Counted from the stretch's first letter, positions 2 through 48,440 are shown. The stretch is DNA of 64,000 nt from Dehalococcoidia bacterium (GCA_963662615.2 CAXXSR010000001.1:1728001-1792000), one strand, 5' to 3'. Numbers and translations: made by a program. The notes: a model not told the origin generated them from the sequence alone.

Positions 2-787
2 GGCGGTGAGCTGGCGGATCGCTTCGTGGCTCAGGCTCAGCGCTACGGGGTGGAGCTGCTCTCGGCGGTGGGCGTTACGAAGATTGAGAAGGACGGCGAG
101 GAAGTGGAGCTACGGCTCAGCACCGGCGCCGCCGTCTGCGCCCACGCGGCGATCGTGGCGACGGGCGCATCGTACCGGCGCCTGGGCCTCCCCGGCGAGG
201 ACGATCTGATTGGCGCCGGCGTCCACTTCTGCGCCACCTGTGACGGCCCCTTCTACAAAGGCGCGGAGGAGTTGCTGGTCATCGGCGGTGGCAACTCCGC
301 GCTTGAAGAGGGCCTCTTCCTCTCCCAATTCGCGCAACGCATCCGGATCGTGGAGTTCAATCCGGCGCTGAAGGCGTCGCAACTGCTGCAGGATAAGGTG
401 CGTGCCCATCCGCAATTCGTGGTGCACACGAACACGGAGGTGACGGCGCTGCGCGGCCGCGCCGGCAAGCTCAGCGAAGTCGTGGCGCGGGACCGCGCCA
501 CAGGCGAGGAGATGCGCTGGACCCCTGCCGCCGCCTTCGTCTTCATTGGCCTCACGCCGAACAGCGGCTTTCTCAATGGCGCGGTGCGGCTGGACCGGTG
601 GGGATTCATTGAGAGCGATGCCGTCTTCGAGTCGTCGCTGCCTGGGCTGTTTGTGGCGGGCGACGTGCGGGCCGGCTCCACCAAGCAGTTAGGGTCGGCG
701 GTGGGAGACGGCATCGCGGCGCTGCTGCACGTGCGGGAATACCTCAAAGAGCACGCGCATGTGAGTCGCACGTCGGTGAACGCGTGA
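2..787 (+). CDS. trxB: Thioredoxin-disulfide reductase (5'-truncated by window edge)
   Basis: Frame open to the left edge. Motifs HFCATCDG (redox CxxC), VIGGGNSALEEG (dinucleotide binding) and PGLFVAGDV...KQLGSAVGDG (FAD). Confidence 0.92.
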   Translation, partial: GGELADRFVAQAQRYGVELLSAVGVTKIEKDGEEVELRLSTGAAVCAHAAIVATGASYRRLGLPGEDDLIGAGVHFCATCDGPFYKGAEELLVIGGGNSALEEGLFLSQFAQRIRIVEFNPALKASQLLQDKVRAHPQFVVHTNTEVTALRGRAGKLSEVVARDRATGEEMRWTPAAAFVFIGLTPNSGFLNGAVRLDRWGFIESDAVFESSLPGLFVAGDVRAGSTKQLGSAVGDGIAALLHVREYLKEHAHVSRTSVNA

Positions 788-853
788 TGGGCTGAGCGGC
801 GATGCGCGACATCGCGCGGCGGGCCGCGGTCGATCGGGGACCAACGGCGCGCC

Positions 854-1993
854 TCACTGTGCCACGAAGGTGCGGCTAACGTCGTTGACGATCACCGTGT
901 ATTCCGTACCGGAAACGAAATCCGTGCCCAGGGGCACGTTGTGTTCCACTGTGCGGAAAATGTCGATGCAGGCGATCTCCGCCTCCGGCGCGGGCACGAG
1001 ATTCCAGACATCGATGCGGATGGTCGTGTCCTCACGAGTGACGTCATTGCGGTCGAACTCCGCGCAGCCGTCCGGCAGGATGGAGACAATGTGTGCAAAA
1101 TACTGCGGCGGAAACGACTCCGCCACGATCACCTCAAGCGATTGGATGGGCGCGAGCGCCGAAACCGTCGGAAACGGATCGCCACTTGCGGGGATCGTGA
1201 CGGGGAAGAAGTACAACGCGTCGCCCGTCAAGGGGACGCCGTTCGCGGCCGCGCCCCCCAGATCCCCCCACGCCGCGAACACGCTCAGGATGTAGTCGCC
1301 TGGATCGATAGTCGGTGTCCATGTGAGGTCCGGGCCGCCCGTATCGAAGGTGGTGCTCACGCCCGTGCCGACCTGGTCTGGCGTGGATAGGTTCAGGAAC
1401 ACCGAACCGGGGATCGGCTGGTCCCAGCGGAGGCGCACGAGGCCGTCCGGGAGGGGGATGAACGAATCGACGGCGGGGAAGAAAGGTGGGGAATCAGCGC
1501 ACAGCCCAATTCCCTGGACCAGGTCCGCGGGCCAGCAATAGCTGCCGCGCTCGGGCTCGTGGATCTGGTCTCCCACCAGGAGCCGCACGGCGGGTGGACT
1601 TGACGGGAGGCCCGCCGCCCCCGCGGGCGGGAAGCTCCACGTGCGGTCGCTCTGCACGAAGATGAAGTACGGTCGGCCGTGCTCGAGATCGGTGAAGCCC
1701 TGCAGCGCCGACGGGAGCAGCGGCGACTAGAGCAGCCAGGCCTGGCCGACGTTGTCGAACGACCAGATCACGTTGACCCACTCGCGGATGTCATTCAGGG
1801 CCGCGTCGACGGGCAACGTGGGGCCGCCATAGGTCACCAGGTTGCCGCCGTTCACCATGTCCACCGTGGAAGGCTCATGGCCGGCGCTGGCCACGTCCCT
1901 CTGCGACCAGGCGGCAAGAAGAACGGCGCCGGCGACCAACGCACAAGAGACAGCCGCAAAGACGAAGGTCCGCTTGGGTCGAACTGCTGTCAT
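854..1993 (-). pseudogene. Secreted multi-domain hypothetical protein interrupted by an in-frame TAG at 1727-1729
   Basis: ORF 1727..1993 (signal peptide MTAVRPKRTFVFAAVSCALVAGAVLLAAWS) and ORF 854..1657 are in the same frame. The sequence reads ...QAWLL*SPLLPSALQGFTDLEHGRPYFIFVQSDR... through one TAG. Confidence 0.65.
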
Positions 1994-40671: not shown

Positions 40672-41856
40672 CTAGACGTTCAAGTGGTACAGCGCTGCGG
40701 CGTTGTCGTGGAGGATGTTGCGCAGGTCCCGCTCCGGCAGGCCGCTGAGCGCATGCTCGATCTGGTCCTTGGGGACGCGGGCAATGGAGCCCCCGCCGGG
40801 CGACATGCTGGTGGGGTGCGGGTAGTCCGTCTCGTAGAGTACGTTCTCAGAGCCGATCTGCTCGATCGCCTTGACCGCGCTCGCCTCCTCGAACCAGAAG
40901 CAGGCGTAGACCTGCCGTTTGAAGTACTCGCTGGGGAGCAGGTCCATCTCCGGATGCTCGTAGATGGCGCCGCTGTTGTTCCACTGCCAGTCCGCCGCCT
41001 CCAGCACGAACGGCACCCAGCCAATCCCGCTCTCCACGGAAACGAACTTCAGCTTGGGGTAGCGGTGGCAGATCCCGGAAAGGATGACGTCCAGGACGGC
41101 AACGGAGTTGTCCAGGAAGAACAGGACGGCGTTCTTGCTGCCGGCCGCTTGCTTGCCGTTGTGGACCGTGGCCTCCTCAATGGTCGTGAGGAGGTCGCCG
41201 GAGCCGATGTGGAAGTTGATGGGCAGATCCAGTTCCTGCGCCGACTCCCACAACGGGTTCCAGTGCGGATCGGTGATCGCGGGGAAACCGAACACGTGCG
41301 GTTGATTCGTCATCAGGACGCCCTTGTGGCCCAGCTTGGCGCTGCGCTGCATCTCCGCCACACAGGCGTCCACGTCCCAGAACGGCATCGTCATGATTGG
41401 GATCAACCGCTGGGGATCGGCTGACGACCACTCGCTGAGGAAGTCGTTGTAGGCACGGATGCAATCGAGCATCAGCGGTCGCTCCTCAAGCTCAAGGAAG
41501 TTCCCGCTGCCGAAGCCGCCCACGTTGGGGTACAGGATTTGGGCGTAGATGCCGTATTCGTCCATGCGCTTGATGCGCTCTCCGGAGTCGTAGCAGCCCG
41601 GGTCCGCGTCCTGGAGAGTGGGGGGGTGACTGGGCAGCGGCTTGTCCCATCCCGCGATGGCCGTCCGGCCCACTGCAAGGCCCATCCTCCCGGCAATGAC
41701 CCAGCGGTCCGCCTCGATCTCCGGGTCGAAGACCACGTGCGGCACCCTGTCGCCCCACTTCTTCGTGGACACGCGGCTGGTCCAGAGGTCGTACGGCTCC
41801 GAGACGTGGGTGTCCACGTCGATGACTTTGATCCGGTCAGCAATGGCCTGCGGCAT
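40672..41856 (-). CDS. Amidohydrolase family 2 protein
   Basis: IDVDTH, AYND, PINFHIG, VESGIGW, ETDYPH, HDNAAALY. Confidence 0.88.
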   Translation of the reverse strand: MPQAIADRIKVIDVDTHVSEPYDLWTSRVSTKKWGDRVPHVVFDPEIEADRWVIAGRMGLAVGRTAIAGWDKPLPSHPPTLQDADPGCYDSGERIKRMDEYGIYAQILYPNVGGFGSGNFLELEERPLMLDCIRAYNDFLSEWSSADPQRLIPIMTMPFWDVDACVAEMQRSAKLGHKGVLMTNQPHVFGFPAITDPHWNPLWESAQELDLPINFHIGSGDLLTTIEEATVHNGKQAAGSKNAVLFFLDNSVAVLDVILSGICHRYPKLKFVSVESGIGWVPFVLEAADWQWNNSGAIYEHPEMDLLPSEYFKRQVYACFWFEEASAVKAIEQIGSENVLYETDYPHPTSMSPGGGSIARVPKDQIEHALSGLPERDLRNILHDNAAALYHLNV

Positions 41857-42048
41857 GGAGCCCTCCCATGTTGCCCCGCGCTACGTCACCCGACGCGCAG
41901 CCGGGGGAGGAGCGGCCCGCGCGGACGCGCTCCAGCATGGGGCGTAGGATAGCAGCTTGCCGATTGAATGGGCTGGAGCCGTTCCCGGCGATTCGCTCCG
42001 GGCAGGTGGACCCCTCGGCCCCGCCCGGGGGCTCCCGCTGAACGGCGC

Positions 42049-42927
42049 CTACGACACCGCCCCAGAGGCCGGGGCGTCCTGCTGCGCGCGCTGCTGGCGA
42101 GCCAGCGCCTCCTCTTCGGCCCCTATGCCGGCGAGATGGCTGATGTAGATCGGCACCAAGGGGAGCACGCAGGGAGAGATGAACGAGAGGACACCGCCCA
42201 CGAACGCAATCCCGAAGCCGAAGAGGCCCGTGACGCTGCCGCCCGTGCTCTCTTCCGCGCCACCCCCTGGGAGGAAAGCGAAATAGTCGTTCAGCACCGT
42301 CACGCGGTCCAGGAAGATGAGCATGCCAATGAAGACGAGGAGAATGCCACTGCCAATGGAGATGGCCGGCATGTACGGTCCCATCTTGCGCAGCAGTGCC
42401 GTGGACGAGCCCAGCGCCGCCCCCGTAATCAGGAAGGGAATCCCCAGCCCCAGCGCGTAGAAGACCAAGAGGAGGGCACCCTGGGCTACGGAGGAGCCGT
42501 CCGCTGCCAGCGTCAGGATGCCCGCGAGAATCGGGCCCACGCAAGGCGTCCAGCCCACCGAAAAGGCGCCGCCCACAAAGATCGACTTTCCGTACCGCCG
42601 TAACCCGGTGCGGCGCATGGGCGCGGCCGCCGAGCCGGACTTCGGCACCTGGGACGAGCCCCCGCCACCGAACTGGTACGTTCGCATGAGAAAGGGAATC
42701 GTGATCAGCTCGGAGAGGTGCAGGCCCAACACGATGAGGGCGACGCCCGCCACGCGCTGGAACCAGATGAGGTTGTCCTGCAGCGCGATTCCGACGATCC
42801 CGAGTGAGGCGCCCAGAATCACGAAGACGACGGAGAAGCCGCCCACGAAGGCGAGCGCGTGCATGAACGTGGTGCGCCGGGGGGCGGCGAATTCTCCTCG
42901 CCCTAACGTCGCTTGCGCCGTCGCCAT
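42049..42927 (-). CDS. ccdA: CcdA-family transmembrane electron transporter, apparently circularly permuted
   Basis: GWTPCVGPIL lies mid-protein; AFVGGVLSFISPCVLPLVPIY (normally N-terminal) lies at the C-terminus. Confidence 0.88.
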   Translation of the reverse strand: MATAQATLGRGEFAAPRRTTFMHALAFVGGFSVVFVILGASLGIVGIALQDNLIWFQRVAGVALIVLGLHLSELITIPFLMRTYQFGGGGSSQVPKSGSAAAPMRRTGLRRYGKSIFVGGAFSVGWTPCVGPILAGILTLAADGSSVAQGALLLVFYALGLGIPFLITGAALGSSTALLRKMGPYMPAISIGSGILLVFIGMLIFLDRVTVLNDYFAFLPGGGAEESTGGSVTGLFGFGIAFVGGVLSFISPCVLPLVPIYISHLAGIGAEEEALARQQRAQQDAPASGAVS

Positions 42928-43042
42928 AGCCGTATCCTAGTGCAGGCCGCGAATGCGTTCATATCAGGTTACGCCCGTCCCCTTCGCGCAGATTCCGTCG
43001 CCACGGACGCAAGGCGAGACCCGGGCGGAGAGCGACCCCGTC

Positions 43043-43726
43043 ATGATGCCCAAGCTGCGCCTCTCCGTCGTGATCCCCACACTGGACGAGGCAGGCGCCG
43101 TGGCGGGGGCCATTCGGAGCGCCCTTGCCGCCGGCGCCACTGAGGTGATCGTGGCGGATGGTGGCTCGCGCGACGGGACCACCGCGATCGCTGCCGTCCA
43201 GGGCGCCTCGGTTGTGCGGGCCCCACGCGGGCGGGGTCCCCAGCTCAACGCGGGAGCGGCCGCAGCCCGCGGCGACGCTCTCTGCTTCCTGCACGCGGAC
43301 GGCCGGCTCGCGCCCGCGGCGGGCGCGTCGATTCGTAAGATATTGAACGATCCGAGCATCATCGGCGGCAATTTTCGCCCCCATTTCGGCCGCTCGGCGC
43401 ACGGGCGCTTCCTTGCCGCCTTGTATCATGTCATCCGTCGCTTGCGGATCTATTACGGAGACTCCGCGATCTTCTGTCGCACAGATGCGTTTTGGGCCGT
43501 CGGCGGCTTCCCTGCGTACCCGCTGATGGAGGACCTGGCCTTCGTCCATCGGCTGCACCGGCGCGGCCGCATGGCCTACCTACAGGTGCCGGTGTTCGCG
43601 TCGCCCCGACGCTGGCAGCAGGGGGGGATCGCGCAGGTGTGGGCGTCCTGGCTGGTTATCCAGTCCCTCTACTTTCTCCGCATCTCGCCGCAGCGGCTCG
43701 CCCTCTTGTACCGGCAGATCAGGTGA
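43043..43726 (+). CDS. GT2 glycosyltransferase, TIGR04283-like
   Basis: SVVIPTLDE, VADGGSRD, GRGPQLNAGA, FLHAD, YGDSAIF, GGFP...MED, SPRRW. Confidence 0.85.
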   Translation: MMPKLRLSVVIPTLDEAGAVAGAIRSALAAGATEVIVADGGSRDGTTAIAAVQGASVVRAPRGRGPQLNAGAAAARGDALCFLHADGRLAPAAGASIRKILNDPSIIGGNFRPHFGRSAHGRFLAALYHVIRRLRIYYGDSAIFCRTDAFWAVGGFPAYPLMEDLAFVHRLHRRGRMAYLQVPVFASPRRWQQGGIAQVWASWLVIQSLYFLRISPQRLALLYRQIR

Positions 43727-44550
43727 AGAACGACGCCTCCCGTCCGCCATTGCCCAAGAGCCCAATGCCCAGGAGCGACTCGCGCCGCCGGCGGGGCGTG
43801 AAGCGTCCCGACCTCCCCACGCCCGCGGTGGGCGTCTTGACGCGGGCGCCGGAGGCAGGGCAGAGCAAGACCCGCCTGGCGGCCGCGATCGGCGCAGCGG
43901 CGGCGGCACAGCTCGCCACCGCGATGCTCCTGGACACCACCAACGCCCTTTGCGGCTCCGGCGCCTGGCGCACAACGCTCTTCGTGGAGCCTCCCGCGGC
44001 GGCGGGCACGCTGGGATCCCTCACCGGATGCGACGATGTGCGACCGCAGAGCGAAGGCAGCATTGGAGCGCGGATGCTCTCGGCGGCGCGAACGCTCCGG
44101 CGGGAGGGCTATGCCCCCGTGGTCCTCGTGGGTTCGGATATCCCTGGCTTGACGCGGGAGCACATCAGCGAAGCCCTGGAGGCGCTCCGAGAGGCGGACG
44201 TGGTCTTCGGACCGGCCTGGGACGGCGGCTACTACCTCATAGGGCTCTGGGAGGCGGCGGCGGACCTCTTTGACGATGCCGCCGTCCCCTGGAGCACGAG
44301 CGAAGTGCTGGCAGCTTCGGAGAAGGCAGCGGCAACGCGAGGGTGGTCATCCCGGCGCATCCGCCCGGAGCGGGACGTGGACAGTCCGGCGGATCTCGCC
44401 ACCCTGCGAGCGCGCCTGCTAGCGTCGGGGGCAGCGCCTGACGCGGCGCACACACTGAAAGCGCTTGCGGCCCTTGACCAATCCATCGAGGGACTGCTCA
44501 ATCCGAGCGAAGGGAGGGGACGTGGTGAAGCTCGCGACGTTCACACATGA
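43723..44550 (+). CDS. DUF2064/TIGR04282-like nucleotidyl- or glycosyltransferase
   Basis: RAPEAGQSKTRL, QSEGSIGARM, VGSDIP, VFGPAWDGGYYLIG, PWST, DVD. GTGA overlap with the upstream gene; start uncertain. Confidence 0.82.
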   Translation: MKNDASRPPLPKSPMPRSDSRRRRGVKRPDLPTPAVGVLTRAPEAGQSKTRLAAAIGAAAAAQLATAMLLDTTNALCGSGAWRTTLFVEPPAAAGTLGSLTGCDDVRPQSEGSIGARMLSAARTLRREGYAPVVLVGSDIPGLTREHISEALEALREADVVFGPAWDGGYYLIGLWEAAADLFDDAAVPWSTSEVLAASEKAAATRGWSSRRIRPERDVDSPADLATLRARLLASGAAPDAAHTLKALAALDQSIEGLLNPSEGRGRGEARDVHT

Positions 44551-47219: not shown

Positions 47220-48440
47220 ATGGCGGAATCCCACCGGGCCGCTTTGCAGGCCGGCGCCCCTTCGACGCCCGCCGCTCCGGAACAGCCGCCGCTGCCGGAG
47301 GAGAATCCCAACCGTCACCGCGAGTACCACGGCTGGCGCACGATGGTCACCGCGCTGTTCATTGTCGGCGTGGCGGCCCTGGCAATCTCGCTCGCCGTGT
47401 TCAGCGGCGGGACGCCGGCCACCGAGGGCGACTTCGGCGTCGTGGAGCTGCCCGCCTATCTCAATCCGGCCCAGCGGCCGGTGGAAGTCCGCGCCGGGGC
47501 GCTGGCGCCGGACCTTGAATTGGAGACGCTGAACGGCGAGCGCTTCCGCCTCTCGGACTGGCGGGGGCATCCGCTGGTGCTGAATTTTTGGGCCTCGTGG
47601 TGCGGCCCCTGTCGACGCGAGACGCCCGTCCTGATCCGGCTTCAAGACGAACACCGCCGCGCGGGCCTCGTCGTCGTGGGGGTCAACATTGAGGAGGCGC
47701 GGGGCCCGGCGCGCGGATTCGCCGACGAGTTCGCCATCAATTACCGCCTGCCCATGGACTTCTCCGGCTCGGTCACGCGGCGGTACTTTCCCGGGTTCAC
47801 GGGCCCACCCCGCACCTATTTCATCGCGCCCGACGGATCCATCCACGAGTTCTTCGTGGGCCAAGCGTCTGAAGCCGAAGTGGAACGGGCCACCGTGAAG
47901 CTGATGCGCCTGATCGACGGTCCGCTTGGTCCCAACGTCCTCCCGGGCCCCAAGGCGCTACCCACCAATCTTCTTTCGGAGTTCCATGTTGTGGGCACGC
48001 GCGTGGGGGAACTCGCCCCGGACTTCGTCCTCCCCACGGAGGGCAGTCCGGCGCGAATGTGGCGGCTGTCGGACCAGCGGGGCCGTCCCCTCCTGCTGAT
48101 CTTCGTGGAGCCGGGCTGTCCGGTCTGCGCGGTGGACTGGGCGATCGACGCAGCGACAGAAGGCGGCGTCGATGCGGTCGTCATCACGTCGTCGGGTACG
48201 GTGGCTGCCAGGGCGGGGGGCGCACCGTTCACCGAGTTGCAGTGGGAAACGGAGACCGGCTCCTTATTCGCGAAGGGGAACTCCGTCCAGTACGCCGTTG
48301 TAGGAGCTGACGGCGTGCTGCGGGCCCTGTCCGCGGCGAACGGGGAGATTCTGCGGGCGTTGGAGGCCCTGGCTGCCGAAGCCGCCGTCCCCCAAGCCAC
48401 CGTCCCCGAAGCCACCGCCCCCGACGCCCCGGCCTCCTAG
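47220..48440 (+). CDS. Membrane-anchored TlpA/ResA-family thiol-disulfide oxidoreductase with two redoxin domains
   Basis: N-terminal TM helix; GALAPDL...LNFWASWCGPC; second domain GELAPDFVL...IFVEPGCPVC. Confidence 0.82.
   Translation: MAESHRAALQAGAPSTPAAPEQPPLPEENPNRHREYHGWRTMVTALFIVGVAALAISLAVFSGGTPATEGDFGVVELPAYLNPAQRPVEVRAGALAPDLELETLNGERFRLSDWRGHPLVLNFWASWCGPCRRETPVLIRLQDEHRRAGLVVVGVNIEEARGPARGFADEFAINYRLPMDFSGSVTRRYFPGFTGPPRTYFIAPDGSIHEFFVGQASEAEVERATVKLMRLIDGPLGPNVLPGPKALPTNLLSEFHVVGTRVGELAPDFVLPTEGSPARMWRLSDQRGRPLLLIFVEPGCPVCAVDWAIDAATEGGVDAVVITSSGTVAARAGGAPFTELQWETETGSLFAKGNSVQYAVVGADGVLRALSAANGEILRALEALAAEAAVPQATVPEATAPDAPAS

Follow-up and report, generated by a model that had tools for sequence, protein, structure and literature searches.

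Can CcdA do without having its first transmembrane helix (TM1), which carries one of its two redox cysteines, at the N-terminus? This question is raised by positions 42049 to 42927 of a 64,000-nucleotide stretch of DNA from a Dehalococcoidia bacterium (GCA_963662615.2, CAXXSR010000001.1:1728001-1792000), the whole of which is called the window below. The open reading frame (ORF) at this locus encodes a protein of 292 amino acids (P0001; P, L, G and f numbers are our handles for proteins, loci, genomes and families). By its sequence, P0001 is a homologue of CcdA by descent, and a permuted variant rather than a canonical member. The preliminary description of this locus had proposed a natural circular permutation that keeps both cysteines and places the termini in the former TM1-TM2 loop, and the Pfam match, the profile search of the organism's own genome and the alignment to a solved structure all bear this out. 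The parts of the gene are as follows, the evidence for each being given in brackets.

42049..42927, minus strand: whole ORF, 292 amino acids and stop, permuted CcdA with the order TM2-TM3-TM4-TM5-TM6-linker-TM1 (Pfam, own-genome profile search, 5VKV alignment).
42865..42927, minus strand: N-terminal tail, residues 1-21 (MATAQ...PRR), predicted cytoplasmic, three Lys/Arg (conserved in homologues; charge count).
42688..42864, minus strand: segment A, canonical TM2-TM3, residues 22-80 (5VKV 40-91; Pfam profile from position 39).
42586..42687, minus strand: TM3/TM4 loop, residues 81-114, rich in Gly/Ser and in Arg, seven Lys/Arg, predicted cytoplasmic, of low model confidence (model; charge count).
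42304..42585, minus strand: segment B, canonical TM4-TM6, residues 115-208, with GWTPC and the codon of Cys129 at 42541-42543 (5VKV 113-211; invariant W126, P128 and C129).
42223..42303, minus strand: TM6-to-TM1 linker, residues 209-235, acidic and Gly-rich, no Lys/Arg, predicted outside (model; linker comparison; charge count).
42139..42222, minus strand: segment C, canonical TM1, residues 236-263, with SFISPC and the codon of Cys253 at 42169-42171 (5VKV 7-35; profile 8-38; invariant S251, P252 and C253).
42052..42138, minus strand: C-terminal tail, residues 264-292, predicted cytoplasmic (topology prediction).

The only Pfam family found in the 292 residues is DsbD_TM (PF02683), which scores 62.5 bits against a cut-off of 27.1 and matches in two stretches. 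The best stretch pairs residues 14-204 with positions 39-214 of the 219-position profile. A six-frame search of the organism's genome (2.66 Mb, 93.6% complete) with the same profile places positions 39-214 in the 5' part of the gene and positions 8-38 in its 3' part, within one frame, so that the two matches come in swapped order, as had been anticipated. A sequence alignment to the solved CcdA of Thermus thermophilus (5VKV; E 6.2e-22) pairs residues 21-72 with 40-91, residues 115-217 with 113-211, from the GWTPC helix to the end of TM6, and residues 240-268 with 7-35, which is the SPC helix TM1 (AF..GVLSF.SPCVLPLVP.Y). P0001 thus shares with this protein and the PF02683 class the SPC and WTPC motifs, six homologous helices and the restriction to a membrane domain. 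It differs from canonical CcdA in helix order (TM2-6 and then TM1, as opposed to TM1-6), in having both termini predicted inside instead of outside, and in an added external linker of about 27 residues between TM6 and TM1. Of the features that characterize the CcdA class, both redox motifs are present, with Cys253 in SFISPC and Cys129 in GWTPC. The protein also consists of the membrane domain alone, without alpha or gamma domains, and has six spans on our reading of the predicted model, in which DSSP leaves TM2 and TM3 as one helix. The canonical helix order with an N-terminal, cysteine-bearing TM1 is the feature that P0001 lacks. DsbD beta and ScsB likewise have a pair of redox cysteines within the membrane, in TM1 and TM4 (PMC3322552), and this pair is common to them and P0001. 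These relatives have eight helices together with alpha and gamma domains, whereas P0001 has six helices and no periplasmic domains. An assignment to the three-domain DsbD/ScsB reductases was rejected on the latter ground and on the score of the NCBIfam DsbD model (30.7 bits against a cut-off of 330); this model and TsoB both match P0001 weakly and far below their cut-offs.

When 36 permuted proteins with identities as low as 32% are aligned, W126, P128, C129, S251, P252 and C253 are invariant in all 36, and so are several further positions occupied by Gly, Phe or Pro. The AlphaFold2 model built on this alignment has a predicted local distance difference test score (pLDDT) of 81.5 and a predicted template modelling score (pTM) of 0.78. 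Its helices span residues 17-71, 108-143, 147-170, 172-205, 235-249 and 257-284, the C-terminal helix blocks score 82-93, and low confidence is confined to the TM3-TM4 loop and the linker. In a Foldseek search of the PDB, the sole match of high probability is 5VKV (probability 1.00, E 4.7e-3, TM-scores 0.41/0.50, 30% identity). VIA-align pairs model residues 17-230 with residues 36-224 of the 5VKV chain (173 aligned, root-mean-square deviation 5.6), that is, from TM2 onward, and hence the model begins at the start of CcdA TM2. On the side of caution, the structural match to 5VKV is weak when taken alone, as its VIA Z of 5.0 ties with those of unrelated helical proteins.

Counting Lys and Arg on our helix boundaries gives 14 on the segments predicted inside and one outside, which agrees with a predicted topology in which both termini are inside and the Gly- and acid-rich linker is outside. 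In this arrangement, the two termini, the TM3/TM4 loop and the TM5/TM6 loop would face the cytoplasm and the new TM6-to-TM1 linker would lie outside. With the linker there, TM1 could enter the membrane from outside as it does in canonical CcdA, which would set Cys253 beside Cys129 of TM4.

A swapped order in a single gene could also be an artefact, in which a mis-assembly, a frameshift or a wrong gene call joined a piece of TM1 to the end of a truncated ccdA. The preliminary description raised this possibility and we found no evidence in its support. In four of four sequencing runs from four studies, one of which may be the source sample, positions 41700-43200 lie on one uninterrupted contig with zero to four base differences, no indel and no joint, so a mis-assembly at the linker did not occur. 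A protein with 98% identity exists in another assembly. The best 120 homologues (54-98% identical) come from many assemblies, including contigs or chromosomes of 2-5 Mb, and all 120 show the same order, the WTPC-type cysteine lying in the middle of the chain and the SPC cysteine close to the C-terminus; those that are named are called cytochrome c biogenesis protein CcdA and belong to metagenome-assembled genomes (MAGs) of Chloroflexi, Chloroflexota or Dehalococcoidia. Permuted proteins also turn up in ten further clusters, on independent contigs. The chance that the gene is an artefact is therefore practically nil. The contigs of two runs (X8 and X10) show strain-like single-base differences (42208 A>G, 42318 T>C, 42789 T>A and 43033 C>T), again without indels. 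None of the runs listed as containing the locus is an RNA run.

The region upstream of the gene has no room for a TM1, because the frame is closed by a TAG four codons ahead of the ATG and a divergent glycosyltransferase gene follows beyond the start. This part of the preliminary description holds, also in that the search of the organism's own genome with PF02683 returned one TM1-like match only. The TAGGAT just 5' of the ATG had been taken for a -10-like element, for which we see no support: a consensus scan of positions 41850-43150 returned no promoter-like and no terminator-like site. The AGGA within it reads better as a probable ribosome-binding site.

42935..42938, minus strand: AGGA, 7 nucleotides 5' of the ATG, likely ribosome-binding site (our reading of the sequence; no sigma-70-like site).

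The divergent gene codes for a family 2 glycosyltransferase (42953-43726, plus strand), whose true start may be a later ATG near 43043. It is overlapped by a DUF2064/CofC-like frame (43492-44550, plus strand).

What would the rearranged protein do? The P0001 gene is the only PF02683 match in its genome, where the six-frame search found neither an upstream TM1 in another frame nor a second CcdA gene. The same genome contains ResB, CcsA/ResC, four matches to Cytochrome_CBB3 domains and twelve to redoxin. Being encoded by the sole PF02683 gene alongside ResB, CcsA and c-type cytochrome domains, P0001 most likely has the ordinary role of a CcdA, its two termini being predicted to be cytoplasmic. 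The protein is very probably functional. We hold it to be likely that P0001 is a working CcdA-type thiol-disulfide electron carrier wired TM2-TM3-TM4-TM5-TM6-linker-TM1, its activity being something we infer. A relay of electrons from thioredoxin to the outside has been described for the family (PMC3322552), and by analogy the same would be expected of P0001. The cysteine pair would be reduced by cytoplasmic thioredoxin as in canonical CcdA and would then pass the electrons to a membrane-anchored, thioredoxin-like protein outside; here, the client of the relay would be cytochrome c maturation by System II (ResB/CcsA). One gene in the window encodes a candidate for the extracytoplasmic acceptor, and nothing more than a candidate.

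47220..48440, plus strand: redoxin/AhpC-TSA protein of 406 amino acids with an N-terminal membrane anchor, WCGPC and a second CPVC region, 4.3 kb from ccdA (candidate acceptor).

The alternative is that the permuted protein is real and does not do the job of CcdA, being inactive or serving another role, with another protein exporting the reductant. Three observations speak for it, the first and the last of which also count against the ordinary function. Five other genomes were examined in which every DsbD_TM match, in all five, falls inside one permuted ORF; ResB is matched in two of them (G348 and G292) and was not found in the other three (G059, G398 and G094), for which reason System II cytochrome c maturation is not the role everywhere. 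The permuted genes of family f28 come in addition to a canonical one. Finally, the organism's own genome contains two matches to DsbD_2 (PF13386), one barely at the cut-off in the genome search and one below it. As alternative carriers, neither is convincing: the first is His-rich, shows no cysteine in its sequence by eye and scores 22.8 bits as a protein, and the second (L122) is sub-threshold at 19.3 bits, with no Pfam family assigned to either of its two frames. Against a different role also stand the invariance of both cysteine motifs and their flanking Pro, Gly and Trp in 36 of 36 permuted proteins, and the company that this sole PF02683 gene keeps with ResB, CcsA and c-type cytochrome domains. 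We consider a role other than that of CcdA improbable. The L122 locus (G000:C1:602500-604000) has frames at 281-1024 and 238-1173 (plus strand) that look like a membrane protein, with the motifs LPCGFP and ACPMP. It seems to run on in another frame and could contain a frameshift.

The order of P0001 is not confined to this organism. We split P0001 into segments A (TM2-3), B (TM4-6) and C (TM1) and built one hidden Markov model (HMM) for each to call the order in 350 proteins, a set biased to relatives of the query that combines 270 proteins from protein searches with 80 frames from a scan of genome contigs. The canonical order C>A>B was found in 182 of the 350 and the order of P0001, A>B>C, in 149; a third order, B>C>A, occurs in five, and the remaining 14 are fragments or split matches. 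The preliminary description had allowed that the order might turn out to be a common, already described CcdA subfamily: it is indeed common, yet a description in print was not found. Among the best 80 loci of the contig scan, seven have A>B>C. Two of these lie on chromosomes of Dehalococcoidia MAGs, and the rest are labelled Chloroflexi, Anaerolineae, Chloroflexia, 'bacterium' and Woesearchaeota.

For a more even sample of the phylum, 401 genomes were searched with residues 150-292 of P0001, which span the TM6-TM1 junction, and the 30 loci returned were classified. A permuted CcdA is present in 22 of the 401 genomes, a count that leaves out three junction-spanning matches in G043 and G274 and includes six unpublished genomes in the denominator only. 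The order is A>B>C in 21 of the 22, the organism's own genome included, and B>C>A in one (G292). In family f28 (G006, G043, G067, G166, G258, G274 and G354; loci L096, L098, L100-L102, L104 and L106), one to three permuted paralogues accompany a canonical copy. Families f1, f19, f31, f54 and f56 seem to hold the permuted form only. Beyond the phylum, clusters bear names such as Candidatus Eremiobacteraeota and 'archaeon', and all full-length members of the ten clusters examined are A>B>C.

Fusion to further domains is seen on one side of this divide. The 83 long relatives (at least 512 amino acids; P0298-P0380) carry fused redoxin or thioredoxin domains and include no permuted form; they have the canonical order, or TM1 first with TM2-3 undetected. 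The canonical order of all these fused proteins agrees with permuted forms having no terminus outside. No N-terminal fusion was seen on permuted forms, whose long frames are stop-to-stop upstream sequence. Two permuted proteins, P0137 (340 amino acids) and P0140 (360 amino acids), have a cytoplasmic TM3-TM4 loop lengthened by about 100 inserted residues.

The third order, B>C>A, reads TM4-6, linker, TM1 and TM2-3 and was found in P0122, P0125, P0133, P0219 and P0247, and at locus L087 (G292:C2:332122-335499). P0122 is 57% identical to P0001 over 221 match columns and has the same TM6-to-TM1 junction and both cysteine motifs; its chain is cut in the TM3-TM4 loop, while that of P0001 is cut in the TM1-TM2 loop. 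Its best 120 homologues (including P0382-P0500; 64-100% identical) are B>C>A with both cysteine motifs in 120 of 120 cases, and the named ones are CcdA of Dehalococcoidia. Judged by these sequences, B>C>A is a large family, mostly of Dehalococcoidia. G292, which belongs to the same class as the window, has ResB and no DsbD_TM gene other than one of the B>C>A form.

Did these orders arise once? To compare proteins of different order in one tree, we took the 325 proteins in which one of the three orders is complete and every segment HMM is covered to at least 80%. Segments were aligned to their HMMs, match columns were joined in canonical order and the rows were thinned to below 70% identity, which left 183 rows: 148 canonical, 30 A>B>C and five B>C>A, all five of the latter being kept. 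The FastTree tree of these rows has 20 changes for A>B>C, of which at least six are forced by starred branches, and three for B>C>A. A quick IQ-TREE search (LG+G4) was made on 71 rows, namely the 35 permuted ones and the two nearest canonical rows of each. There, starred branches force at least eight changes for A>B>C and three for B>C>A. The approximately unbiased (AU) test rejects A>B>C as a single clade (log-likelihood difference 514, p 1.3e-39) and likewise rejects all permuted rows as a single clade (log-likelihood difference 524, p 1.4e-4).

P0001 groups with three other A>B>C rows in a starred clade. Closest to this clade are the canonical P0123 and P0124 and a pair (starred, 96) formed by the B>C>A protein P0122 and the canonical P0127. 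All three orders therefore occur among proteins that are about 50-58% identical. Elsewhere in the tree, the A>B>C protein P0253 stands in a starred clade (99) with the alphaproteobacterial CcdA of Microvirga and Kiloniellales.

On these trees, a single origin of the permuted order is rejected, and helix order seems to have changed several times in the CcdA family. The competing account is one ancient permutation that spread by descent and transfer, with the scattered placement in the tree being noise. The shortness of the alignment (213 columns) would favour it, as would the 79 of 180 inner branches that are unresolved in the FastTree tree and the lack of overall significance when linkers are compared with canonical tails (see below). 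The two AU rejections and the at least six to eight changes forced by starred branches contradict it, as does the persistence of lineage-specific tail motifs in the linkers of P0253, P0206 and L051. We regard a single event as very unlikely.

Recurrent rewiring has its own weak points: the trees have no root, were built by quick searches or with FastTree and draw on 213 columns of one small protein, and the 71-row set owes its 36 canonical members to a choice of those closest to the permuted ones. Such trees do not distinguish gain from reversion. With this in mind, we lean, without strong confidence, towards CcdA being a permutation hot spot. The bundle would have been rewired independently many times (at least six to eight forced changes), with cuts at two cytoplasmic loops and three orders side by side in a single small clade of Dehalococcoidia (identity about 50-58%), apparently none of it in print. 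The termini would always have moved from outside to inside, which suggests selection for easier insertion with the N-terminus inside, and the covalent path between the helices would be irrelevant to electron transfer.

The most likely route to the new order, as we infer it, is tandem duplication of the gene, in-frame fusion of the copies and loss of the outer parts. A linker formed in this way is predicted to read as a canonical C-terminal tail followed by a canonical N-terminal head, and this is what the clearest pairs look like. The linker of P0253 ('MLENFPGLANIE...') keeps the tail motif of canonical proteins from its Microvirga/Kiloniellales clade, which end in 'LLETFPALANLG' and 'ILEAFPDLGRIG', each directly before the stop. 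The linker of P0206 (TPSWLAETE) resembles the tail of P0195 (TPEWLLERM, then stop), and a third clear pair is formed by the linker of L051 and the tail of L041. Other results weigh against duplication. Across all 35 linkers, resemblance to the nearest canonical tail was not significant overall: five linkers placed that tail in the top tenth (p 0.27), the median rank was 57 of 129, and for P0001 itself the rank was 90 of 129. Moreover, no doubled or half-truncated intermediate was found among the 350 classified proteins or, which is weak evidence, among the 83 relatives of at least 512 amino acids.

The missing doubled intermediate would be more readily understood if the gene had instead been split and fused again, with a TM1 mini-gene moved behind TM2-6. 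Proteins made up of TM4-6 and TM1 only, or of TM2-6 only, do occur in the set (e.g., P0267 with 183 and P0223 with 213 amino acids), although such short proteins may be contig-end fragments. The tail-then-head reading of the clearest linkers is what an in-frame fusion of tandem copies predicts, and we consider fission with re-fusion somewhat unlikely. Two further short proteins of this kind are P0158 (216 amino acids) and P0143 (234 amino acids); like P0267 and P0223, they may be contig-end fragments or split genes.

To our knowledge, circular permutations of multi-helix membrane proteins have rarely been documented at the sequence level. Natural permutations of membrane proteins, such as the various domain orders of the proton-translocating transhydrogenase, rearrange connectivity and retain the fold, but these cases move whole domains or subunits and not a single helix of a six-helix bundle. 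We did not find a permuted CcdA or DsbD described in the full-text literature, a search that did not extend to subscription journals, Pfam/InterPro notes and TCDB. In PMC11205269, where CcdA/DsbD and permutation terms occur together, the terms concern other things, and the ScsB paper makes no mention of permutation. The function of P0001 is probably ordinary, and its architecture and evolution are unusual.

The permuted CcdA proteins form a large, conserved natural set with two cut points, in a small protein for which a solved structure and simple genetic assays are available. They provide a natural test of whether the mechanism proposed for CcdA depends on the tethering of TM1, and they allow membrane insertion to be studied when the N-terminus shifts from outside to inside. 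Linear profiles score them low and in two pieces (62.5 bits with Pfam for P0001, and E values of 1e-4 or 1e-5 for some relatives in genome searches). In reconstructions of pathways such as cytochrome c maturation, permuted ccdA genes can thus be overlooked or annotated as partial.
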